From an uncultured virus (IMG/VR IMGVR_UViG_3300047552_000880) (Duplodnaviria; Heunggongvirae; Uroviricota; Caudoviricetes): a stretch of DNA of 63,892 bases. This document shows positions 20,792 to 50,009 of this stretch, in pieces. The DNA lies in IMG/VR virus record IMGVR_UViG_3300047552_000880, positions 62,001 through 125,892 of that record; one strand, given 5' to 3'. The position numbers and the translations under genes were made by a program. The notes below the pieces were generated by a model. That model saw only the letters and a list, made by a program, of their open reading frames with translations, was not told where the DNA came from and made no database searches. Position 1 is the stretch's first letter; each line of letters starts with the position of its first letter.

Positions 20792-21658
20792 ATGACATTG
20801 GAAGAACGTATTAAACAGATGCTGGAAGAAGCAAACAAGACTGTGGCAGAAGAAACCACAACCATTGTTGCTGAAACCACTACAACCACAGAAACTGTCG
20901 AACAACCTACAGAGAATATTGTTGAGAACAAAGACAACAAAGTAAGTTCACAGGTTTCTGCTCTGCTTGAAGCAGAAGGGTTGAGCGAAGATTTTAAACT
21001 TCAGGCTGTTACTATTTTTGAAGCCGCTGTTGCTGATCGCACCATGCAAATTCAAGAACAGTTGCAAGAAGAATTTGAAACAAAACTGCAAGAAGCGCAA
21101 GCTGAATTGGCAGATCATATTGATGGATATTTGACTGAAATTGCTCAGGAATGGGCAGCTAATAATGAAGTAGCTATTCGTGCTAACTTCAAGACAAAAC
21201 TGGCAGAAAGTTTTATTGATGGCTTGCAGGCTCTCCTGTCTGAGCATAACATTGATTTGCCAGAAGATCAAGAAAACGCACTCGAATTGGCGCTGGAGCA
21301 AGTTACTGAATTGGAAGATGCAGTTGCTGCTGAAAAGGCTAAACAAACTTCTTTGCAAGAAGAAATCAATGCGCTCAAGGCTACTGCTATCATGGAATCC
21401 TTCAAGGACAAAATGGCAGCAACAGAATTTGATCGCTTTAAGCAACTGACAGAATCTGTCAAATTCACTAACGAAACTCAATACGCAAAACAACTGAATA
21501 TCGTATTGGAAAACTTTGGTAAGCTGGCAAAAGAATTCACAAAAGAGACAACTCAAATTGTGGAAGACGTTCAAGAAGTCGCAACAACTAAAATTGTGAC
21601 TGAATCGAACGATTCCGTGAATTTTTACGCTGATTTTATCAAATCAAGCCGAATCTAA
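20792..21658 (+). CDS. gp22: Prohead core scaffold gp22
   Basis: LSEDFKLQAVTIFEAAV and LAESFIDGL motifs; acidic coiled coil between gp21 and gp23. Confidence 0.92.
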   Translation: MTLEERIKQMLEEANKTVAEETTTIVAETTTTTETVEQPTENIVENKDNKVSSQVSALLEAEGLSEDFKLQAVTIFEAAVADRTMQIQEQLQEEFETKLQEAQAELADHIDGYLTEIAQEWAANNEVAIRANFKTKLAESFIDGLQALLSEHNIDLPEDQENALELALEQVTELEDAVAAEKAKQTSLQEEINALKATAIMESFKDKMAATEFDRFKQLTESVKFTNETQYAKQLNIVLENFGKLAKEFTKETTQIVEDVQEVATTKIVTESNDSVNFYADFIKSSRI

Positions 21659-21675
21659 ACGAGATTATCATTTCA

Positions 21676-21682
21676 ATAAATA
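21676..21682 (+). promoter_or_regulatory. Late promoter (ATAAATA) for gp23
   Basis: Intergenic ATAAATA 46 nt upstream of the capsid ATG with taagga RBS. Confidence 0.6.
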
Positions 21683-21727
21683 ATTTCGTATTACGATAAT
21701 TTCTCAATATCCATTAAGGAATAAAAA

Positions 21728-23029
21728 ATGAAAACTGTACAACAACTCTTGGAAAAATGGGCACCCGTTCTGGATGCAGAAGGCGTTCCTACCATTGCTA
21801 ACCGTCATCGTCGCGAAGTGACTGCTGTTCTGTTGGAAAACACAGAAAACGACATGAGCGAGCGTCGTCAACTGAACGAAGCTGCTCCTGTTACTCAAAC
21901 TCAAGGCTATCCTACCGATGGTTCCGGTTTGGCTAAATTCGATCCAGTGTTGATCAGCATGGTTCGCCGTTCTGCTCCACAGATGATTGCTTATGACGTT
22001 TGCGGCGTTCAGCCACTGCGTCAACCTACTGGTCTGGTGTTTGCTCTGCAAGCTCGTTATGGCAACCAATCTGGTGCCGAAGCTCTGTTCGGTGAAGCTA
22101 ACTCCGGTTTCGGCGGCACTGGTACTCATGCTGGCACTGATCCTACTGCTGACTTCGTTGACCAAGACGCAGGTACTGCTGGCGACCAATTCGGTACAGT
22201 GACAACTGGCACCGGTATGTCAACAGCAACTGCTGAAAGTTTGGGCGGTGGTGTTAATGCTTTCGGTGAAATGTCTTTCACTGTTGCTCAGATGACCGTT
22301 TCTGCTAAGAGCCGTGCTCTGCGTGCTGGTTACTCTGTTGAATTCGCTCAGGATATCAAGAACCTGCATGGTCTGGATGCTGATGCTGAGTTGTCTAGCA
22401 TTCTGTCAACAGAATTGCTGGCAGAAGTGAACCGCGAAGTTCTGCGTACAATCTACTCTGGCGCTAAAGTTGGTGCTCAAGACGCTACCAAAGCTGGTGT
22501 GTTTGACCTGTTGACTGACAGCGATGGTCGTTGGTTGGCAGAGCGTCACAAAGGTCTGTTGTTCCAGATCGAGCGTGAAGCTAACCGTATTGCTCAGACA
22601 ACTCGTTTGGGTAAAGGTAACATCCTGATTTGTTCTTCTGACGTTGCTTCTGCTTTGGCTCTGGCTGGTGTGTTGGATTATGCTCCTGCTCTGGATGCAG
22701 CTAACAGCATCAACGTTGATGAGTCTAGCGCAACTTTCGCTGGTGTTCTGAACAAGAAGATCAAAGTATATGTTGACCCATATGCTGGCGCTGCTGGTAC
22801 ACAAAACCAATTCTTCTGCGTTGGTTACAAAGGTGACAGCGCATGGAAAGCCGGTTTGTTCTATTGCCCATATGTTCCTCTGCAACTGGTTCGTACAACT
22901 GATCCAGCTACAATGACCCCAACAATGGCTTACCGGATGCGGTACGGTATCGCCCGTCACCCTCTGTTCCAAGGTGCCGGTCGTACCAATGAGTTCTATC
23001 GCATTGCGGCAGTTCGTAACGTTTTGTAA
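21728..23029 (+). CDS. gp23: Major capsid protein gp23
   Basis: LLEKWAPVL, FDPVLISMVRR, CGVQP, AKSRALRA, EVNREV and FYCPYVPL motifs. Confidence 0.98.
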   Translation: MKTVQQLLEKWAPVLDAEGVPTIANRHRREVTAVLLENTENDMSERRQLNEAAPVTQTQGYPTDGSGLAKFDPVLISMVRRSAPQMIAYDVCGVQPLRQPTGLVFALQARYGNQSGAEALFGEANSGFGGTGTHAGTDPTADFVDQDAGTAGDQFGTVTTGTGMSTATAESLGGGVNAFGEMSFTVAQMTVSAKSRALRAGYSVEFAQDIKNLHGLDADAELSSILSTELLAEVNREVLRTIYSGAKVGAQDATKAGVFDLLTDSDGRWLAERHKGLLFQIEREANRIAQTTRLGKGNILICSSDVASALALAGVLDYAPALDAANSINVDESSATFAGVLNKKIKVYVDPYAGAAGTQNQFFCVGYKGDSAWKAGLFYCPYVPLQLVRTTDPATMTPTMAYRMRYGIARHPLFQGAGRTNEFYRIAAVRNVL

Positions 23030-23044
23030 AATACAAAACTTAAC

Positions 23045-23069
23045 AAAAGGGCACTTCGGTGCCCTTTTT
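23045..23069. terminator. Bidirectional rho-independent terminator
   Basis: aaaagggcac-TTCG-gtgccctttt(t) between convergent gp23 and the endonuclease gene. Confidence 0.9.
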
Positions 23070-24709
23070 CATTTCTTTATCCCATAAACTTTGTTTCCGA
23101 AGTCATAAATCTTTGAATACCCCAATTGTACCATAATATCTTCTGTTTTCATTGAAGAAAATTCAGGGTATTTTTCAATAAGTTTCCAGCGCTGAAACGT
23201 CATTCTGGAGTAACGCTTGCCGCCCTTATACCAACTGAACCCTTGCTCTGTTTGTTTTAGTTCAGTGAACCCCATATTTTCATATAGTTTTCCTGTTCCC
23301 CACCGAAGATCACAATAAGAAATAATAGAGTCTGGTTTAGCGGATGACATAAAATGTTTTAGCAGTTTAGATGCACCGCCGATAACATTCGTATCGTTCA
23401 ATGAGCAAAATCGGAGCAATTCATACTGGTACTCTTTATTGAATCTAGACAAACCAAATGTCATTACAGCAACGAGTTCACCTGAATGTATTAGACCATA
23501 TCTATGTTTTGATTGACACCAGCCCTGTATGTGATTTGTTTCAATAAATTCTCTACACTCAGTTTCTGTTAATTCAATGACAGAACATTTTCTTGCATGA
23601 ATCTTTTTTTCTGTGATACCAAATATAGAACGAAGTCTTGAATAAACAATGTCTTCATTTTCGTCATCAAAGATTTTAATCAATCTGATACCAATTGAAT
23701 CGCACATAACTTTCTTGTGGTAATCGTCTTTATCTCGATGGAAGTAAAGACCATCATATTCAATCGCAATATTTTTCTCTGGAACAACTATATCCAACTC
23801 ATATGGAGCAATAAGTGTTCTGTCGTTTACCAAACAATTGAAACCGGCGTTCTGTAACATATCAACGATTCTTTTCTGTGGAACCGATCTGATGTTGCAT
23901 TTAGGACAGAATAATTCTTTTTTACTGAGAATGCTAGCCGAAAATTCAGTTGAACAGCAATTACATTTCCAGTTATATTTCTGATATCGAATATCCGATT
24001 CAATATACTTTTCAACTGTATCAAGACATTTTATGTTGCATGTAGTTTCAAGTAATGAAACCTTTTCTTTAAACCAAGGTATCGCAACATTCTGGTTATA
24101 GGTATCATTCAGTTTTCTTGACCCGAGCCTTTGTTGACGAATATTGTCTCTGTATTCTAAATTTGCATCTTTACAATCAACTGAACAGAAATCAGCAATA
24201 CTTTTACCATAAGGAGTTTGACTGACATTGTGAACAGGAATGATATCACCACACTCTTTACATTTCCGAATCAATTCGGAGCCATATTTTTCTATCTGAA
24301 GTAATGTCTTGATATCATTGAAATCGTGTTTCTCTTTAAGAGAGTCAACCGTTGCTTTTGACAGAAACTTATCTACCTTGCTCCATGAAAGATTACCATT
24401 CTGATCATATAGAATAGAAAAATCTTCCAATATCGGTAAAGAAGAATCTTTTGTAGCAGAATACTCGTATTTACATTTCAATGAACAAGTTGATCCAAAA
24501 GACCCTTTCTTGAAATTGAGTCGGTCGAATACATCACCACATACCTTACATGTAGGAATCTCACCATGAATAACACCGGCTATCAGAGTCATTGCAGATA
24601 GCCCCTTGCGAACACCAAGGTAGGATTCAACCATTTCTCTATCTTCTGAAAAGGAAGATAACACATTGCTATTCAAGCCGCCCTGTTTGTTCAAATACTT
24701 TTCTAACAT
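23069..24709 (-). CDS. Free-standing Hef-like homing endonuclease (Zn fingers, PD-(D/E)xK/Vsr-like domain, C-terminal domain)
   Basis: Several CxxC pairs, YELDIVVPEKNIAIEYDGLYFH, IHARKC, NHIQG and YELLRFC motifs; the only long minus-strand ORF. Start may be 24709 or 24733. Confidence 0.8.
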   Translation of the reverse strand: MLEKYLNKQGGLNSNVLSSFSEDREMVESYLGVRKGLSAMTLIAGVIHGEIPTCKVCGDVFDRLNFKKGSFGSTCSLKCKYEYSATKDSSLPILEDFSILYDQNGNLSWSKVDKFLSKATVDSLKEKHDFNDIKTLLQIEKYGSELIRKCKECGDIIPVHNVSQTPYGKSIADFCSVDCKDANLEYRDNIRQQRLGSRKLNDTYNQNVAIPWFKEKVSLLETTCNIKCLDTVEKYIESDIRYQKYNWKCNCCSTEFSASILSKKELFCPKCNIRSVPQKRIVDMLQNAGFNCLVNDRTLIAPYELDIVVPEKNIAIEYDGLYFHRDKDDYHKKVMCDSIGIRLIKIFDDENEDIVYSRLRSIFGITEKKIHARKCSVIELTETECREFIETNHIQGWCQSKHRYGLIHSGELVAVMTFGLSRFNKEYQYELLRFCSLNDTNVIGGASKLLKHFMSSAKPDSIISYCDLRWGTGKLYENMGFTELKQTEQGFSWYKGGKRYSRMTFQRWKLIEKYPEFSSMKTEDIMVQLGYSKIYDFGNKVYGIKK

Positions 24710-24714
24710 AAATA
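24708..24714 (+). promoter_or_regulatory. Late promoter (ATAAATA) upstream of the gp3 unit
   Basis: ATAAATA overlapping the likely start codon of the opposite-strand endonuclease. Confidence 0.45.
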
Positions 24715-24741
24715 CCCCAACAAAATAATTCATAGTATATC

Positions 24742-24945
24742 ATGGAATCAAGAACACATCAATTGGATAACACAAAACTCTCGGGTAACATCTTTGAAAG
24801 CATTCTAGCTGCTTCTCATGATTGCTATATGAGTCGAAGAAGGGAAAACAGAAACATAGAACTCGGGGCAGATGCACCAAGAGGAAAAGAATCTGCTTTC
24901 ATTGGTGGCTGTGTAACGAGTCTTCTGAAGGTACAAAATGGCTGA
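24742..24945 (+). CDS. Small hypothetical protein
   Basis: 67 aa ORF overlapping the gp3 start; no recognisable motif. Confidence 0.3.
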   Translation: MESRTHQLDNTKLSGNIFESILAASHDCYMSRRRENRNIELGADAPRGKESAFIGGCVTSLLKVQNG

Positions 24946-25420
24946 TGCTGGTTTTAACCATCTACAGACAAATGCATTCACGTTTACTTTACAGAGGATG
25001 CAAGCAACTACCTTTAGAATAACTTCAGCCGAGGTGCCATCAATTACTGTTCCTCCACCAAGTACAGGAACACAGGGAGCAACACAATATCATCCCGGTA
25101 GTTTCACTGAGTTTGATGAATTGTCTCTGAGATTTATTGTTGATGAAGACCTTCAGAATTACGAAGAAATATATCATTGGATAACACAACAGAGATATGC
25201 TATTGGCACTGCATATCAGCCAAAGTCAGATGCAGAGAAATTATTAGTGAGTGATGGGTTTCTAACGACTCTGACTAATAAGAGCAATCCAAATAGAACA
25301 ATCTATTTTAAGGATATGTTTCCTATTGCATTAGGTAGTCTTGCATTCAATGTTCAAGAGACACCAGAACCATTGACATGTTGGGTAACATTTAGATTCA
25401 GTTACTTTGAGTTGAGGTGA
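24938..25420 (+). CDS. gp3: Tail completion protein gp3
   Basis: FDELSLRFIVDEDLQNYEEIYHWI, FKDMFPIAL and VTFRFSYF motifs. Confidence 0.9.
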   Translation: MADAGFNHLQTNAFTFTLQRMQATTFRITSAEVPSITVPPPSTGTQGATQYHPGSFTEFDELSLRFIVDEDLQNYEEIYHWITQQRYAIGTAYQPKSDAEKLLVSDGFLTTLTNKSNPNRTIYFKDMFPIALGSLAFNVQETPEPLTCWVTFRFSYFELR

Positions 25421-25465
25421 TCATCATTACAGGTACTCTGTACTCATAAGGATTCATTAGACTCT

Positions 25466-26270
25466 GTTTGGGTAAACCAAACCATAGTGTGCTCCGCACA
25501 TCGCTACGCGATCATCCTTTATTTTTCTTTTTTCTTTTCGCGACTCCCTCCGGTCATACAGCGGTTGAGAAAAACAAAGTTACCCCGTTTCCGGGGGTAA
25601 GACGATGTTTCTCCCAACCACCGTATGATTTAAATCAGCATAGCTGATCATACATCGGCGTCGAATGAACTTAGTTTGATTTACAACCCCATTCCTATCT
25701 CAGAATGTTTAGGTAGCGCGGTGATTAAACGCTTTACGTAGTTACCTCTATCACTGTGGGTACTGACAAGAAATCAAACGTCTTCCGGGTTACTCAGTGT
25801 TCTACAGAACAAAATTCACTCCGGTTGTCAATACCGTGGCACGCCCGCAGGTGCCTCTGCCCACCCTATTTCAGATCATAGTGAGCTTACCCTACTCTTT
25901 CTTTCACCACCCGTTATCTACGATAAACTGAATTCGTGTTTTTCGGGAGGAACCATATCCTCTTGTGGTCTACTCGATTAGATGTAGTCAATCCATTTAG
26001 CTATGTGGTCAACCCATAGCCTAAGTCATCAATGCTTCGTTACGCTGCCATTGACACCAGCTACAGACAGTTTAAGGAGTAGATTGCGGCTCCATCAACA
26101 GAACAGTAGTTTTAAGTGGTACTCGTCACTGATAAATAAAATGCAGTTTAGTGAGTATGCGGCTCAACAGATGGTACAGCAGAACAGTAGTTTTAAGTGG
26201 TACTCGTCACTAACTTGGATATTTATGTTTTCGATGAACTGGTATTTTAACGTGGTACTCGGCACGAACA
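25466..26270 (-). ncRNA. Candidate large structured non-coding RNA, family unassigned; boundaries approximate
   Basis: No credible ORF; many helices whose mismatches become G-U pairs only on the minus strand; GAAA-capped long hairpin; minus-strand promoters at the right end. Confidence 0.6.
26099..26266. repeat. 32-bp exact direct repeat x2 plus a degenerate third copy
   Basis: cagaacagtagttttaagtggtactcgtcact at 26099-26130 and 26180-26211; gaactggtattttaacgtggtactcggcacg at 26236-26266. Confidence 0.9.
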
Positions 26271-26286
26271 GATGCTATTTATCAAC

Positions 26287-26314
26287 ACTATAACACAGAA
26301 AACGTTTGAGTCAA
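26287..26314 (-). promoter_or_regulatory. Sigma70-like promoter pointing into the non-coding region
   Basis: Minus strand TTGACT-16 nt-TATAGT with a TG extension. Confidence 0.55.
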
Positions 26315-26349
26315 CACATTGGTTGACACATTTTGAAAATAAATTATTT

Positions 26350-26790
26350 ATGCTTGATCATGAACAGCTTTTGACCGAATGGGAAACCGATTGTAAGGTT
26401 CCCTCTGATGCTCTGTTAGAGCGCATGTACAGACACCCCATCCTTCATAGCAAGTATCTTGGCTACCTACAGTCTTATAAGATCAGTAGTCGTAAGGTCA
26501 CACTTCGCTATCAGAAACTCCGGCTCCTGAAGACCCGTTACTATAACGGAGAACTGTCAGAAGAAGAACTAATTGAGAACAATCTTAAACAGTACCTGTA
26601 TAAGCGACCTTTGAAGTCGGAAATGGAATCTCTACTGGATGCCGATGCTGATCTTCAGAAACTTCAGGAACAGATTCTGTATATCGAGACTTTGATTCAG
26701 AGTACCGAGGCTATCATGAAAGAGTTGACTAACCAACACTATCTGTTCAAAAATATCATTGAACAGACCAAATATCTTACAGGGAATTGA
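26350..26790 (+). CDS. uvsY: Recombination mediator UvsY
   Basis: EWETDC, PILHSKYL, RYYNGE, LKSEMESLLDAD and KNIIE motifs; upstream of uvsW. Confidence 0.88.
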   Translation: MLDHEQLLTEWETDCKVPSDALLERMYRHPILHSKYLGYLQSYKISSRKVTLRYQKLRLLKTRYYNGELSEEELIENNLKQYLYKRPLKSEMESLLDADADLQKLQEQILYIETLIQSTEAIMKELTNQHYLFKNIIEQTKYLTGN

Positions 26791-26791
26791 A

Positions 26792-27064
26792 ATGTTTAGA
26801 GGCGCAGTAACACTTGACAAAAATACTGTTATCAATTTTTTGAACTCACATGGAGTCGATCTTGTTCAATGGGTAGCGGATAAACTGGATAACCCAAAGA
26901 TCGTTTACATGCACAGTAACATTTTTGTGGTCGGCGAATCAACAGAATTTTCTGTTGCCAAATCTAGTATGGAATCTTACCCTCTTTACTCACTGAGATT
27001 TTTTGGTGTTGATTTACTTGACTACGCTTTTGAGGAACTGAGATTTCAATCAGTGGTTCTATGA
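26792..27064 (+). CDS. Hypothetical protein
   Basis: Fills the uvsY-uvsW gap with an ATGA overlap. Confidence 0.5.
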   Translation: MFRGAVTLDKNTVINFLNSHGVDLVQWVADKLDNPKIVYMHSNIFVVGESTEFSVAKSSMESYPLYSLRFFGVDLLDYAFEELRFQSVVL

Positions 27065-28545
27065 CAGACATTATTATTCGTAAGGTCAATGAGACATATC
27101 TTGAAGTCGTATCTGACATGGATACGGCTTTCGTTATCTCTGATAGTTATAGTTTCAGACCAGATGGGTATCGATTCATGCCAGAGTATAAGGCAGGTCG
27201 ATGGGATGGGTATATCAGAATGTTCAATATGGGAACCCGCAGAATGTTATTGGGTCTGAAAAATGATCTGATTCAATTCTGTGAACAAAGAAATTACTCA
27301 TATTCCCTTGAAAACTTCGACGATCAGTCACTGAATCTCTCTGACAGTGATGTAGATGCCTTTATTTCGCGTTTAAACGCCTTTGGAGGCGATAAACCGT
27401 TACAGGTAAGGGGATACCAGCGGTATGCCATTAAAACGGCTCTAAACGCCTCTAGATCGATTTTAAAGGCAACTACTGGCGCAGGTAAATCTTTTATTCA
27501 ATACGCGCTATCAAGATACCTTTCCGAAGAACTTGGACTAAAGGTTCTGATTCTTGTTCCAACAGTGGCGCTTACTACTCAGATGAAGAATGATTTTGCT
27601 GATTATTCTTCTCGGTCTGATTGGTCTGCCGAAAAGAATGTTCATACAATCAGTGCTGGTCTTGATAAAGACACAGATAAACCAATTGTGGTCAGCACAT
27701 TCCAATCTATCTATAAGATGCCAGTGGAATGGTATGAGCAGTTTGGGGCAATTATTGGCGATGAAGGTCATAAGATAAAGTCTTCTACAATATCTTCGAT
27801 CTTCATGAATTCAACTAAATGTAGATTCAAGATCGCCTGCACAGGCACATTGCACGATATGAAGTGTCACCTGAAGCAGATGATTGGGTTGACAGGCGAT
27901 GTAGTTGAAGTTGCTGATGCAAAGGATTTGATTGCCGAGGGTCAGTTGGTTCCATTGAAAGTATCTGGAATTATATTGACCTATGACAAAGAAGTTGCAA
28001 AAGCAATGAAAAAAGCTGACTATGAAACGGAGATAAAATACATTGTCACGAACACCAAGCGGAACAAGTTCATTGCGAATCTGGCGCTGAAATGTAAGGG
28101 AACTACTTTACTTCTATATAGGTTCATTGATCTTCAGGGTGATCCGCTGTATAAGATGTTATGTGAAAGAACAGATAGAACTGTTCACTTCATTGATGCC
28201 GATGTTGATAGAGAGACAAGAGAAGAAATCCGTCAGAGCGCAAATAAATCTGATGACGATATTATTGTTGGTAGCTACGGATGTATGAGCACTGGCATCA
28301 ATCTTCCTGCGATTGAAAACATCATTTTCTGTCATCCAGTGAAGTCCAAGATCACGGTTCTTCAGAGCATTGGTAGGGGTCTGCGGCTGAAGGAAGGTAA
28401 GACACACTGTAATCTCTATGACATTACCGATAATATGACGTATAATAGAAAGCAGAACACAACTTTCTCGCACTTCAGTGAGCGTGTTGGTATGTACGGC
28501 TCAGAAGGGCACTCTGTTAAACTTATTACGATTCCATTTGAATGA
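27061..28545 (+). CDS. uvsW: SF2 helicase UvsW
   Basis: WDGYIRMF, TGAGKS, DEGH, STGIN and LQSIGRGLR motifs. Confidence 0.95.
   Translation: MTDIIIRKVNETYLEVVSDMDTAFVISDSYSFRPDGYRFMPEYKAGRWDGYIRMFNMGTRRMLLGLKNDLIQFCEQRNYSYSLENFDDQSLNLSDSDVDAFISRLNAFGGDKPLQVRGYQRYAIKTALNASRSILKATTGAGKSFIQYALSRYLSEELGLKVLILVPTVALTTQMKNDFADYSSRSDWSAEKNVHTISAGLDKDTDKPIVVSTFQSIYKMPVEWYEQFGAIIGDEGHKIKSSTISSIFMNSTKCRFKIACTGTLHDMKCHLKQMIGLTGDVVEVADAKDLIAEGQLVPLKVSGIILTYDKEVAKAMKKADYETEIKYIVTNTKRNKFIANLALKCKGTTLLLYRFIDLQGDPLYKMLCERTDRTVHFIDADVDRETREEIRQSANKSDDDIIVGSYGCMSTGINLPAIENIIFCHPVKSKITVLQSIGRGLRLKEGKTHCNLYDITDNMTYNRKQNTTFSHFSERVGMYGSEGHSVKLITIPFE
27368..27465. repeat. Dispersed bipartite element, copy A (inside uvsW)
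   Basis: cgcgtttaaacgcctttggaggcg...aaaacggctctaaacgc; similar to the copies near 43000 and 52830. Confidence 0.55.
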
Positions 28546-28961
28546 AACCAACATTACTGTCACTACTCACTGTCAATAGTGAGCAAATTCTTGGCGACTA
28601 TCTTTTCGAGGAAACAGAACTGGATAAGGACACAGGCGAAAGTCTTGGCTATATCTATCTTCTGTTTCCGATTCGGATCATGCAACAGAGCATGGTTCAT
28701 CAGTCTTCAAAGGTGTCAACAATATTTGTTCCGCAACTGATGTTACCGTTCGGTAAGTCGAATGTTCATAAGTTCCGTAAAGACTTCTTTGTTCACATGA
28801 CCATTTGTAGCGATTATGACCGCCGCTACTATAATAGCATCCTTGAGGAAATCCTTGCTGTTGAGACAAAGCGAAAATTGTTGTCTAGTTCTTACTTTGA
28901 TCAGGTAGAATACGCATACAAGAAATTTGATATGCACCACGGAACCACAACAATTCAATGA
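28542..28961 (+). CDS. Hypothetical protein downstream of uvsW
   Basis: 139 aa, coupled to both neighbours; C-terminal TIQ is similar to the T4-like ORF usually found at this position. Confidence 0.6.
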   Translation: MKPTLLSLLTVNSEQILGDYLFEETELDKDTGESLGYIYLLFPIRIMQQSMVHQSSKVSTIFVPQLMLPFGKSNVHKFRKDFFVHMTICSDYDRRYYNSILEEILAVETKRKLLSSSYFDQVEYAYKKFDMHHGTTTIQ

Positions 28962-29971
28962 CAGCACTTTATATAGAAATCTCCTACTCAAAACAAGTAG
29001 GGGCTGCTCTTGAGCGTTTTCGTGTAAAACGTGAATCTCCTTTTCTGGCAGCGGCTCGATGCCCAATCTGTGGCGACTCAGCTAAAAGTAAGTCAAAGAC
29101 TCGTTTCATCTTCTATGAGCGAGAAAGTCATATCAATGTGATGTGTCATAATTGTGGCTACAGTAGCTCTGTTGTCACATTTCTGAAGAATCATTACAAC
29201 AGTCTCTATAACGAATATATCATTGAGAAATATAGAGTAACCGGAAATGATAGAGAAAAAGAAACATTTAAAATACCTGTCTCTGCGCCTGTCATTAAAC
29301 CAAATTCATTAGATTTACCTCTGGTTAAAAATCTTCCGGTAACTCATATTGCGAGACAATATGTTGATTCAAGAAACTTGCCTGAATATGGGTTTCAATT
29401 TGCAGAAGACTTTTATGGGTTCTGTCAGCAATATAATAGTTCTATACCCGAGACTAAAAACAAAGAACCTAGACTCATAATTCCTTTCTTTGATCGGAAA
29501 GGAAACGTATTTGCATTTCAGGGGCGCGATCTAACAGGAAAGAGCAAGCAAAAATATATTACCATCACGATTGATGACAAGACACCAAAAATATTTGGTA
29601 TAGATCGTCTTGATGTTAAGCAGCCTGTTATCATTGTCGAGGGTCCAATTGATTCGTTGTTTCTTCCGAATTGCATTGCATCCGTGAATGCTTCTTTGGT
29701 TGCCACTGCCAAAAAGTTGACCGGAGTAATAAATAAAACCTCCACCACACTAGTCTATGATAATGAACCGAGAAATAAAATTATCGTAGAGCAGTATCAG
29801 AAGGCTATTGATGCCGGATATCCAATAGTCATATGGAGTAAAGAGTGCGAGGGGCTTAAAGATGTTAATGACATGATTCTTGCTGGAATCGATGTTAAGA
29901 AGGTGATCAAAAAGAACACTTTTAGTGGTATAATGGCGAAGATAAAATTTTTGGAGTGGAAAAAGGTATGA
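28958..29971 (+). CDS. gp61: DNA primase gp61
   Basis: RCPICGDS, CHNCG, RLIIPF, FQGR, VEGPIDSLF, DNEPRN and KDVNDM motifs. Confidence 0.96.
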   Translation: MTALYIEISYSKQVGAALERFRVKRESPFLAAARCPICGDSAKSKSKTRFIFYERESHINVMCHNCGYSSSVVTFLKNHYNSLYNEYIIEKYRVTGNDREKETFKIPVSAPVIKPNSLDLPLVKNLPVTHIARQYVDSRNLPEYGFQFAEDFYGFCQQYNSSIPETKNKEPRLIIPFFDRKGNVFAFQGRDLTGKSKQKYITITIDDKTPKIFGIDRLDVKQPVIIVEGPIDSLFLPNCIASVNASLVATAKKLTGVINKTSTTLVYDNEPRNKIIVEQYQKAIDAGYPIVIWSKECEGLKDVNDMILAGIDVKKVIKKNTFSGIMAKIKFLEWKKV

Positions 29972-32748
29972 CAGATATTGTGATCGACACATCACGTGAT
30001 GAATTGTTTGATGAAATTTCCTTGGCGCGACTCAAGGACTCGTATATGATCGAAGGAGAAACAACTCCGCAAGAGCGTTATGCGTTTGTTTCAAAACAGT
30101 TTGGGTCAAACCCAGAGCACGCACAGCGATTATATGACTATGCGTCAAAACATTGGTTTGGATATTCAACCCCTATTCTTTCGTTTGGTCGAAATAAAGG
30201 TGGTTTACCCATCAGTTGTTTCTTGGTATCTGTTCCTGATACTAAAGCTGGATTAGTTGATTCTTTGTCCGAAACAAATTGGCTTTCGATGCTCGGTGGC
30301 GGCGTTGGTGTTTATTTTGCGACTCGTGGCGCAGACGAAAAATCTGTTGGGGTGATTCCTCATTTGAAAGTATATGATGATTCTTGCCTTGCGTTCAAAC
30401 AGGGTTCGACCCGCCGTGGTTCATATGCTGCATATCTTGATATCAGTCATCCAGATATTATGGATTTTCTTGATATGCGCAAAGAAACCGGTGATCAGCG
30501 CCGCCGTTGTTTGAATCTCCACAATGCAGTGAATATTCCTGATTCTTTCATGAAATTGGTTGAGGGTCGAATGCTTGATCCTAAATTTGATGATACATGG
30601 GAATTGAAAGACCCTGTGTCCGGTAAAGTACACGAAAAGGTCAGTGCTTCGGAATTGTGGATTAAACTGCTTGATCTTCGTGCAGGAGTCGGTCGTGGTG
30701 AGCCTTATATTCTTTTCACTGACAATGTTAATAATCAGGTGAAACCTGTTTTGCGTGAACGTGGATATAAAGTCAATCAATCAAATCTTTGTGTTGCGCC
30801 AGAAACTCAAATTTTGACAGAAAACGGATATGAAACAATATCTGATCTGGAAAACGAAACTGTATCTGTGTGGAATGGACAGGAATTTTCTAATGTTATT
30901 GTTCGCAAGACCGGAGAAAATCAGAAACTGATCCGTGTTATCACAGATTCTGGGTTTGAACTTGAATGCACCCCATATCATAAGTTTTATGTCCATCAAT
31001 ATGTCAATGGCAAGAAAACTACTGTTGAAAAACGCGCTGGCGAATTGCTTCCCGGCGACAAGTTGATCAAGAGCGATTACCCTGTCATTGAGGGAACAGA
31101 GACTCTGGAATATGCCTATGACAACGGTTTTTATACAGCCGATGGTTGTCTTGAGGCTAGAGGTCAGCGCGTTTATCTCTATGGCGAGAAACAAAAATTG
31201 AAACCATTCTTGTCGGATATCTATGGGAATTGGTGTGAGTCAAGTAACTGTGATCGTATAACTGCTACTACCAGAAAACTGAAGGACAAATATTTTGTTC
31301 CTAATGGAGATTATACGATTAAATCTAAATTAGATTGGTTTGCTGGTTTGTGTGATGGTGATGGCACGGTTTGTCGGAACGGAGAATCTCAATCTATTCA
31401 AGTTTGTTCTGTTCGTAAAGAATTCTTACAACAGGTTCAATTGATGCTGCAAACACTTGGTGTGTATTCAAAGGTAACAAAATCAGTTGATGCAGGCTTT
31501 CGCCAGCTTCCAAAGAATGACGGTTCAGGAGAAAAAGGTGACTATTTCTGTCAGACAACGTATCGTCTGATGATTGGTCAACGTTATATTGAAAAACTCA
31601 TTTCTCTTGGTTTTAAGACACATCGATTGGTTCTGACCAATCATACTGGCAATCGTGAGTGTACCCATTTCATTAAGGTTGAAGCCATCATCGATGATGG
31701 TCGTTATGATGATACATATTGTTTCACCGAGCCAAAGCGACATATGGGCATGTTCAATGGTATGTTGACAGGTCAGTGCAACGAAATCATGTTGCATACC
31801 GATGCACAGAATACCGCTGTTTGCTGTTTGTCTTCGATCAACTTGGATCGTTGGGATGAATACAAAGACAATTATCAGTTTTTCCTTGATCTGATGGAAA
31901 TGCTTGACAATGTGTTACAATACTTCATTGACAACGCACCTGACACAATTTCTCGGGCAAAATATTCTGCGATTCGAGAGCGTTCTGTCGGTCTTGGTGT
32001 GATGGGTTATCATTCATACTTGCAACAAAAAGGCGTTGCATTTGACAGTGCAGTTGCAAAGGCATATAACAAAAAGATTTTCAAAACATTCAAGGAAATG
32101 CTTGATCGTGCTAACATTGATCTTGGTTCTTCTCGCGGTTCTCCTGCTCTTTTAGAAGGAACTGGATTGAGATTCGCGCATTGTAGTGCATTGGCACCAA
32201 CAGCATCGAATGCATTGATTTGCGGTAATGTGTCGCCTTCTATTGAGCCTTGGCATGCGAATGCTTTCCGTCAAGATACTTTGTCAGGTACTTTCATTCA
32301 GAAGAATAAGTATCTGAACCAGATTATCATTGAACTGGAAGCCGCAGGAAAATGTGATGCAGATGATGTGTGGAAGCAGATTGTTGCCGCAGATGGTTCT
32401 ATTCAAAATATTGATGTATTTGATGATCATACGAAGGAAGTCTTTAAGACAGCACCGGAGATTGAACAATTGATGTTAGTTGAACAGTTGACAGATCGAC
32501 AGCCATATATTGATCAAGGACAGTCTTTTAACATTTTTATTCGTCCAGACATTTCTATTCCTAAACTCCATGCGATACACTTCAACGTATGGAAAAAAGG
32601 TGGAAAGGGAATGTATTATGTAAGGTCAGAGAAATTGGCTAATGCAGAGAAAGTGAATGCAAAGGTAGTTCGAGTAAAATTGGAAGATGAAATAGATATG
32701 AAGGCAGTTGCCAATGGTGATTTGGAATGTTTGGTGTGTAGTGGATAG
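29968..32748 (+). CDS. nrdA: Class Ia ribonucleotide reductase alpha subunit, intein-containing
   Basis: PISCF, QGSTRRGS, SNL|intein|CNEI, VCCLSSINL, APTAS, YYVR and terminal CLVCSG motifs. Confidence 0.96.
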   Translation: MTDIVIDTSRDELFDEISLARLKDSYMIEGETTPQERYAFVSKQFGSNPEHAQRLYDYASKHWFGYSTPILSFGRNKGGLPISCFLVSVPDTKAGLVDSLSETNWLSMLGGGVGVYFATRGADEKSVGVIPHLKVYDDSCLAFKQGSTRRGSYAAYLDISHPDIMDFLDMRKETGDQRRRCLNLHNAVNIPDSFMKLVEGRMLDPKFDDTWELKDPVSGKVHEKVSASELWIKLLDLRAGVGRGEPYILFTDNVNNQVKPVLRERGYKVNQSNLCVAPETQILTENGYETISDLENETVSVWNGQEFSNVIVRKTGENQKLIRVITDSGFELECTPYHKFYVHQYVNGKKTTVEKRAGELLPGDKLIKSDYPVIEGTETLEYAYDNGFYTADGCLEARGQRVYLYGEKQKLKPFLSDIYGNWCESSNCDRITATTRKLKDKYFVPNGDYTIKSKLDWFAGLCDGDGTVCRNGESQSIQVCSVRKEFLQQVQLMLQTLGVYSKVTKSVDAGFRQLPKNDGSGEKGDYFCQTTYRLMIGQRYIEKLISLGFKTHRLVLTNHTGNRECTHFIKVEAIIDDGRYDDTYCFTEPKRHMGMFNGMLTGQCNEIMLHTDAQNTAVCCLSSINLDRWDEYKDNYQFFLDLMEMLDNVLQYFIDNAPDTISRAKYSAIRERSVGLGVMGYHSYLQQKGVAFDSAVAKAYNKKIFKTFKEMLDRANIDLGSSRGSPALLEGTGLRFAHCSALAPTASNALICGNVSPSIEPWHANAFRQDTLSGTFIQKNKYLNQIIIELEAAGKCDADDVWKQIVAADGSIQNIDVFDDHTKEVFKTAPEIEQLMLVEQLTDRQPYIDQGQSFNIFIRPDISIPKLHAIHFNVWKKGGKGMYYVRSEKLANAEKVNAKVVRVKLEDEIDMKAVANGDLECLVCSG
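30790..31776 (+). mobile_element. Intein (329 aa) with LAGLIDADG endonuclease in NrdA, Gln-terminated
   Basis: Starts CVAPETQILT, ECTPYHKF, GFYTADG and WFAGLCDGDG motifs, ends DTYCF...FNGMLTGQ followed by +1 Cys. Confidence 0.93.
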
Positions 32749-49166: not shown

Positions 49167-49243
49167 GCGCCTGTAGCTCAGTTGGACAGAGCAACAGCCT
49201 TCTAAGCTGTGGGTCAGAGGTTCGAATCCTCTCAGGCGCACCA
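49167..49243 (+). tRNA. tRNA-Arg(UCU)
   Basis: Cloverleaf: gcgcctg/caggcgc acceptor, anticodon loop cttctaa, GTTCGAATC, encoded CCA. Confidence 0.96.
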
Positions 49244-49934: not shown

Positions 49935-50009
49935 TCGGGGATAGCTCAATGGTAGAGCAGGGAACTCATAATTCCTTGGTTGTCGGTTCGAGTCCGGCTC
50001 CCCGAACCA
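49935..50009 (+). tRNA. tRNA with CAU anticodon (Met or Ile2)
   Basis: tcgggga/tccccga acceptor, loop ctcataa, GTTCGAGTC, encoded CCA. Confidence 0.92.

Follow-up and report, generated by a model that had tools for sequence, protein, structure and literature searches.

The stretch of DNA analysed here, called the window throughout, comprises 63,892 nucleotides (nt) and forms the right half of the 125,892-bp IMG/VR record IMGVR_UViG_3300047552_000880, the genome sequence of an uncultured freshwater T4-like phage. Genes for a major head protein, a homing endonuclease, a gp3-like tail protein, UvsY and a UvsW-like helicase lie in this order across the region of interest, and gp3 and uvsY are separated by a spacer without a credible open reading frame (ORF) (Table 1). 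The best relatives of the gp3 product in the phage database are cyanophage and other T4-like proteins with no more than 35% identity. The true start of uvsY is at 26350, matching its relatives, and the ATG at 26272 found in a list of ORFs is an upstream extension. In T4-like phages, where genes follow one another wall to wall, the retention of 0.9 kb without a gene needs explaining. We favour, with a probability of about 0.5, the reading that this spacer is a lineage-specific non-coding insert with its own minus-strand transcription unit, predicted to make a discrete non-coding RNA.

An earlier interpretation of the window, made from the letters alone and referred to here as the sequence-only reading, had described a gap of ~930 bp without a credible ORF, and this description holds: ORFs in the spacer are short or of low quality, and neither a codon signal nor a remnant of a protein is seen. 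With 29 long ORFs of the window as training set, each of the six frames of the spacer has negative codon-usage log-odds (-131 to -270), against +12 for gp3, +26 for uvsY and +89 for the endonuclease gene. Searches of the six frames, read through stops, against Pfam and PHROGs return no family and one chance match of 10.8 bits, and a tblastn search with the three minus frames finds no match among 50,697 phage records. Small minus-strand ORFs of at least 15 amino acids (aa) with a Shine-Dalgarno-like motif are absent from the spacer. One plus frame, that of gp3, is poor in stops, with seven across the spacer against 19-28 in the other five (P ~0.012 as the minimum of three frames). Its codon score is still strongly negative despite the few stops, and neither this frame nor a 96-aa ORF has a homolog in a large protein collection. 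Reassignment of a stop codon does not account for it, as the frame mixes three TAA, three TAG and one TGA and the other genes all use the standard code. A remnant of a homing endonuclease or other gene, sought by residual similarity or codon signal, is found in none of the frames.

Table 1. Features of the gp3-uvsY region (window positions) and copies of the R1 element (positions in the named loci).
Feature	Position	Strand	Details
Major head protein (gp23)	21728-23029		PHROGs
Homing endonuclease, 554 aa	23069-24733	minus	phrog_3339, E 6e-94
gp3-like tail protein	24938-25420		phrog_45
ORF-free spacer between gp3 and uvsY	25421-26349	none	putative lineage-specific insert, 929 bp
Plus-strand terminator-like signal	25488-25540	plus	pair of small hairpins ahead of an extended T-rich run; putative function
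Very stable hairpin	25554-25628	minus	23-bp lower stem, internal loop, GAAA-capped GC top stem
Intrinsic-terminator-like core	25567-25600	minus	stem-loop 25600-25580, then U-rich run 25579-25567
Predicted RNA body	25629-26095	minus	ORF-free, 44-47% GC, rich in purines on minus, unremarkable folding
Direct repeat, copy 1	26096-26130		35 nt; 16-nt core AGTG-N8-CACT on minus
GATAAATA late-promoter-like box	26131-26138	plus	212 nt before uvsY start
Direct repeat, copy 2	26177-26211		97% to copy 1; starts 9 nt downstream of box 26226-26220
ATAAATA late-promoter-like box	26220-26226	minus	
Direct repeat, copy 3	26232-26266		66%; core ends CGTG-N8-CACG; starts 10 nt downstream of box 26282-26276
Composite promoter (candidate)	26276-26314	minus	TTGACT, 16-nt spacer ending TGT, TATAGT, 3 nt, GATAAATA
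Late-type box of composite promoter	26276-26282	minus	
Palindrome GTCAAC-N6-GTTGAC	26310-26327	both	provides a TTGAC -35-like hexamer on each strand
Third ATAAATA box	26345-26351	minus	overlaps uvsY start codon
uvsY	26350-26790		phrog_231
UvsW-like helicase	27061-28545		PHROGs
R1 copies	G000:C1:21548-21893 (= L048:549-894); L037:2140-2502; L016:110-470; L015:3348-3703	all minus	

The minus-strand promoter expected from the sequence-only reading at the right end of the spacer was recovered by a promoter scan. The site at 26314-26287, TTGACT-16-TATAGT with an upstream TG, scores 10/12 and is the best of six promoter-like sites in 24700-27100. It has the layout of a sigma-70-type extended -10 promoter, in which the hexamers lie 16-18 nt apart and a TG stands one base upstream of the -10. 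The full pattern TTGAC-N15-19-TAnnnT-N0-6-ATAAATA occurs exactly twice on the two strands of the 125,892-bp genome, once here and once before R1, a conserved non-coding element discussed below. The extended -10 signature TGTGTTAnAnT is found seven times in the genome, six of them on minus. The block of minus-strand genes at 1-24.7 kb contains four of these six, and the other two are the spacer promoter and the site before R1. ATAAATA itself is present 19 times on plus and four times on minus, and three of the four minus copies fall within 26220-26351.

The box attached to this promoter is of the T4 late type. On plus, a copy precedes the major head gene by 52 nt and another the ORF ahead of that gene by 21 nt, so that the NATAAATA box of the spacer is also found before late genes of the same phage. 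For uvsY, the box at 26131-26138 is a candidate late promoter. The window does not contain the exact T4 late consensus TATAAATA, and the looser ATAAATA was used in its place. PMC2984593 reports NATAAATA as the late promoter of T4-like cyanophages without MotA, and early promoters that overlap late ones ahead of the T4 middle-gene homologs of MotA-less phages.

A direct-repeat copy comes after two of the minus-strand boxes, those at 26282 and 26226, but not after the third (26351). The three repeat copies are spaced 81 and 55 nt apart, and the 16-nt core occurs nowhere else in the genome. In copy 3, the core is altered at both ends together, and its inverted symmetry is kept. Base composition also has a strand. 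An excess of G over C marks the sense strand in this genome, with a plus-strand GC skew of +0.04 to +0.15 over plus-strand genes and negative values over the minus-strand block; across 25400-26100 it is -0.08 to -0.24, a skew that points to minus-sense sequence.

Toward its left end, the spacer contains the hairpin for which the sequence-only reading had claimed a fully paired 14-bp stem and a GNRA cap. The hairpin is present and stronger than that, with 23 pairs. On minus, the lower stem runs through 23 uninterrupted pairs (19 Watson-Crick and four G-U), and all four internal non-Watson-Crick positions are G-U on minus and A-C mismatches on plus. The folding energy is -47.5 kcal/mol on minus (z -6.4; 0/200 shuffles as good) and -33.4 kcal/mol on plus (z -3.8; 1/200), and DNA folding parameters rank the strands in the same way. 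A signal scan places two overlapping terminator-like sites on minus inside this structure (25596-25583 and 25600-25580, with tails TAACTTTGTT and CTTTGTTTTT). A GC-rich stem-loop directly before a U-rich run is the arrangement of an intrinsic terminator, and the core is the predicted 3' end of a minus-strand RNA. This type of terminator is in use in the phage, where a canonical one follows gp23. The spacer hairpin shares the GC-rich stem, tetraloop and U-run of intrinsic (Rho-independent) terminators, and is unlike a simple terminator in that a 23-bp extension encloses its stem-loop, with a 3' arm that contains the U-run and continues beyond it. It faces the plus-strand terminator-like site after gp3, which is built from a stem at 25500-25512 with a T-run and from a TTTTTCT repeat at 25522-25538.

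In the favoured reading, transcription would start at the composite promoter, 36-74 nt upstream of uvsY and divergent from it, where a host sigma-70-type extended -10 element (TTGACT-16-TGT-TATAGT) is followed by the T4-late-type GATAAATA box. The transcript would then cross ~0.45 kb of purine-rich, ORF-free and not specially folded sequence, and its 3' end would lie within the 75-nt hairpin, at the GAAA-capped GC stem and the U-run. A non-coding RNA of ~0.65-0.77 kb would result, its length set by the start used, with the 3' hairpin as its sole strong structure. The analysis establishes that the signals are present and rare in this genome, that the spacer does not code for protein and that it has no excess of structure outside the hairpin; that the promoter fires, that the hairpin terminates and that the RNA has a function are predictions. 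The ~550-800-nt RNA against the genome direction proposed earlier keeps its strand and approximate size, ~650-770 nt from the signals, and loses its large structured fold.

Regarding function, we tentatively prefer a cis action on the uvsY leader together with insulation from the late operon, a mechanism that may well prove wrong. The RNA would be antisense to the whole spacer, including the ~200-nt uvsY leader that would arise from the plus-strand GATAAATA box at 26131. Along with the face-to-face terminators, it could uncouple expression of uvsY from the late gp23-gp3 operon, and the repeats might act as operator or RNA-hairpin sites that tune the promoters. If transcribed as predicted, the RNA would join a very short list of long non-coding RNAs in T4-like phages, and it would offer a handle on the timing of recombination genes in phages without MotA, or on replication start sites. 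We give the element modest weight because it is an orphan of one phage with no fold beyond one hairpin.

Several observations weigh against this transcription unit. Firstly, the sequencing runs listed for the spacer include no RNA run, and the collections searched hold no homolog of the spacer, which leaves no conservation or covariation to show selection. Secondly, promoter-like sites are not in excess in the region (6, against 6.5 in shuffles). Thirdly, two further G-U pairs at the very base of the hairpin form on plus only. The basal stem moreover lies 3' of the U-run, so a terminated RNA would lack it, and the G-U pattern there argues for a read-through RNA or for a different role. Fourthly, the 652-nt body at 25629-26280 has a z of +0.63 on minus, with 14/20 shuffles as good, so folding lends no support to a functional RNA. 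The overall difference in energy between the strands of 25421-26100 (-202.1 on minus and -182.5 on plus, with shuffle means of -182.9 and -155.9) is that expected from base composition. Finally, the stop-poor gp3 frame may be the trace of an old plus-strand gene, or chance.

The same stop depletion can be set to the credit of a reading in which the spacer works on the plus strand only, as a 3' trailer of gp3 and a 5' leader or control region of uvsY, the minus-strand signals being incidental. A uvsY leader of ~205 nt that includes repeat copies 2 and 3 could come from the GATAAATA box at 26131, and the body folds slightly better on plus (z -1.11, 3/20 shuffles as good, compared with +0.6 on minus). 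Yet the hairpin is 14 kcal/mol weaker on plus and has four internal mismatches there, a plus-strand terminator-like site comes right after gp3, and the skew is minus-sense. Antisense ATAAATA is nearly absent otherwise, with one copy outside the spacer. We regard a plus-strand role by itself as very unlikely.

A large structured RNA would be expected to fold, over its whole length, to clearly lower energies than its dinucleotide shuffles do, and on this point the proposal of the sequence-only reading, a new family of large structured non-coding RNA with a fold-dependent function, is not supported. The individual helices that it named can be found: the 11-bp helix between 25759-25769 and 25825-25835, with one minus-strand G-U, is present in the sequence and folds, and the small hairpins are all seen in minimum-energy folds. 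The earlier statement that the gap is dense with helices is not supported, since beyond the one hairpin folding is no better than chance. In a scan of 150-nt windows at 50-nt steps across 21000-30000, only two minus-strand windows over the hairpin stand out (z -7.9 and -5.5, the most extreme of the scan), and the remaining minus-strand windows of the gap range from -1.05 to +3.05. The interval 25421-26100 taken as a whole gives z -3.4 / -4.3, carried by the one hairpin because the rest folds ordinarily. The shuffle test is able to detect such RNAs here, as the R1 copy of this genome reaches z -3.9.

Comparison with known RNA families gives the same picture. At gathering score, Rfam returns two tRNAs in the whole window and nothing else, and at E up to 10 it returns three matches to snoRNA models in 25300-26450 (13.6-15.8 bits, with cut-offs of 45-80). 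The spacer accordingly has no Rfam match as a tmRNA, RNase P RNA or group I/II intron at either setting, and the sequence-only reading had not recognised it as any of these. GOLLD and ROOL are large structured phage or bacterial RNAs with families in Rfam. The predicted spacer RNA resembles them in size class and in occurring in a phage, and differs from them in the lack of an Rfam model match, of conserved homologs and of excess folding in the body; the proposed likeness as a large structured RNA is not supported. The reading of a large structured RNA keeps in its favour the minus-strand unit signals, a body GC content 4-7 points above the genome mean, the internal wobble pairs of the hairpin, which all favour minus, the minus-strand G-U required by the 11-bp helix, and the presence in phages of this group of a conserved structured element at the equivalent place. 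Ordinary windows, a body no better than its shuffles, the lack of homologs and a covariance model of R1 that finds no member in the spacer region stand on the other side, and we consider this reading highly improbable.

The spacer is an orphan. The phage is also represented by another assembly of 178,209 bp, which has terminal repeats and is rated complete; over the whole interval the two are identical, and the spacer is single-copy in that complete 178-kb genome. Contigs of four DNA sequencing runs from three studies were compared; the runs that contain spacer sequence are freshwater or aquatic metagenomes. Two other studies contribute short contig pieces identical to the spacer, 193 and 151 nt long, plus one short unlike piece each, and no variant. 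A blastn search of the spacer against the 50,697 phage records gives no match, and sensitive blastn and nhmmer searches of 22 related viral loci give chance matches of 13-27 nt only. In the whole records of five relatives, two of them at least 99% complete, the best match has an E of 0.03 over 16 nt. Exact scans of IMG/VR find an 18-mer of the window in the same phage and in three contigs that share nothing else, and the repeat motif in the same phage only. A scan of metagenomes for UvsY yields 17 loci, none with more than 64% UvsY identity; the DNA of these loci was not compared with the spacer.

Among relatives with UvsY identities of 34-64%, the distance between gp3 and uvsY is mostly 0-125 bp, and otherwise the interval holds inserted genes. 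One relative has a gene for a DenV-like glycosylase and a 194-aa minus-strand HNH gene at the junction (L011:2564-3894), and another has a 501-aa minus-strand ORF without a Pfam family (L009:1221-2726). The minus-strand inserts of both are divergent from uvsY. In relatives, this junction is a hot spot for insertions.

This setting lends itself to a second explanation, that the spacer is the relic of a mobile gene cassette, a minus-strand unit of promoter, ORF and terminator, akin to the homing-endonuclease inserts that relatives have at the junction, whose frame has decayed or been replaced until only the signals are left. The 554-aa homing endonuclease lies on minus just to the left of gp3, the distance of ~640 nt between promoter and terminator suits a gene of ~200 aa, and the orphan status of the spacer and the lack of excess structure in its body are as such a history would have it. 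Against a relic, all three minus frames have 19-28 stops, a near-random number, and no frame has any protein similarity. The promoter (10/12 plus TG) and the 23-bp stem are still intact, the body has a GC content of 44-47% compared with 30-42% in the endonuclease gene and 40% in the genome, and three promoter boxes and three repeats within 250 bp are unlike the product of decay. We hold a relic to be unlikely and retain the non-coding transcription unit as the better account.

The position next to uvsY also calls to mind a replication origin, an alternative that the sequence-only reading had itself allowed for, with a function at the DNA level only. According to PMC3016281, T4 oriF is located at uvsY, R-loop formation at oriF is independent of specific sequences, UvsW removes origin R-loops, and the oriE region has iterons. 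This origin, oriF or ori(uvsY), resembles the proposed spacer unit in lying at uvsY next to uvsW, in a promoter of the replication/recombination class followed by an A+T-rich stretch, for which the spacer has a candidate, and in its non-coding transcript; the T4 origin covers ~100 bp, has a MotA-dependent promoter and is transcribed toward uvsY. The spacer unit is 0.9 kb long, would be transcribed away from uvsY, has a strong terminator and shares no sequence similarity with the T4 origin, and a role in replication is putative.

By analogy, an origin of this kind would use a transcript from the composite promoter that anneals in an A+T-rich stretch and primes the leading strand, the repeats being sites for accessory proteins and the composite promoter the equivalent of the 'middle mode' in T4-like phages that lack MotA. 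The promoter adjoins uvsY and uvsW, the segment 26210-26249, 30-70 nt downstream of the predicted start, has a GC content of 25-35%, the three direct repeats are unique to the locus, and the transcript body is unstructured. The other composite promoter of the genome, moreover, lies near the strand switch and the minimum of the cumulative GC skew at ~21-26 kb. Direction and size fit poorly, with a promoter directed away from uvsY and with 900 bp and a strong terminator kept where ~100 bp would be enough. The transcript near the promoter would be C-rich rather than G-rich (plus-strand skew +0.07 to +0.15 at 26000-26300), and, apart from the block made up of the endonuclease gene and the spacer, cumulative skew shows no local switch. 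An origin is, in our estimate, unlikely.

The leftward non-coding unit favoured here also has a counterpart of another kind. CfrI, an antisense RNA of cyanophage S-PM2, is, like the predicted spacer RNA, a non-coding RNA of a T4-like phage that runs against neighbouring genes in a region shaped by insertion of a homing endonuclease, as described in PMC2984593. It is ~225 nt long and overlaps the coding genes psbA and an endonuclease gene (same paper), whereas the spacer unit is predicted at ~0.7 kb and overlaps the spacer only. In the literature searched, including the available parts of PMC2984593, PMC3016281 and PMC2993671, a non-coding element at the gp3-uvsY junction is nowhere described.

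R1, the more useful by-product of the spacer analysis, is a conserved non-coding element of ~350 nt with its own promoter and compensatory changes in its stems. In three relatives, L015 (with its twin L036), L016 and L037, an ORF-free stretch of 0.85-1.07 kb precedes uvsY, and in these the element lies on minus, divergent from uvsY and 260-380 nt before it. L016 and L037 share 89.7% identity in the ORF-free region compared with 83.8% across the uvsW segment. In the genome of the spacer itself (G000), R1 lies outside the window, behind the other composite promoter and upstream of a sigma-like gene. This gene has a Sigma70_r2 match of 23.7 bits (cut-off 24), and we take it to be of the gp55 type.

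Hairpin stems of R1 are swapped by compensatory changes. A covariance model with 355 positions and 48 pairs, built on the ~350-nt core, scores 287-365 bits on six loci and finds nothing on the other 34 sources. In four sequences, 18/48 pairs are changed on both sides, where shuffles give 7.3 ± 1.9 and slid controls 1-5, a result favoured by the fact that the structure was derived from the same sequences on which it was tested. R1 is not in Rfam and is absent from five other related records. On 24000-28000, with filters off, the best match of the model has 6.7 bits (E 0.1) and skips 306 model positions, deleting the model core, so that the spacer is not a member. The spacer likewise shares nothing but the promoter core with the ORF-free regions before uvsY in L015 and L037, or with the second gap of its own genome.

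R1 resembles the spacer unit in being a minus-strand non-coding element, in its divergence from uvsY in the three relatives, and in the early-plus-late composite promoter that it has in this genome. It differs in that it folds well and covaries, and there is no similarity between the two in sequence or by model. R1 is a better candidate than the spacer for a new structured phage RNA. That the spacer RNA and R1 both belong to an undescribed class of promoter-driven non-coding units in the recombination/replication module of freshwater T4-like phages is a speculative extension, to which we assign a low likelihood; such a class might provide primer or R-loop RNAs for replication origins, or regulators of uvsY.

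Several further features of this phage and its relatives were noted. A promoter-like site of its own, on minus at 24762-24734, belongs to the endonuclease gene, which is inserted between the genes for the major head protein and gp3, and related endonucleases occupy the same position in L003 and L019. The uvsY gene has no Shine-Dalgarno-like motif (26330-26352), unlike its homologs in L010, L011 and L037, and many genes of this phage are likewise without one. An apparent 2-kb gap at the right end of the window is an open-ended ORF of 1303 aa. The two tRNA genes of the window are tRNA-Arg(TCT) at 49167-49243 and tRNA-Met(CAT) at 49935-50009. Between uvsY and uvsW, L016 has an ORF of 355 aa (L016:1287-2351) and L037 has none. 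In L010, the match of the UvsW-like helicase (L010:4297-7066) is split into residues 4-398 and residues 409-494, with 1.3 kb between the two parts, which suggests that uvsW is interrupted there by an insertion, possibly an intron, an intein or an endonuclease gene.

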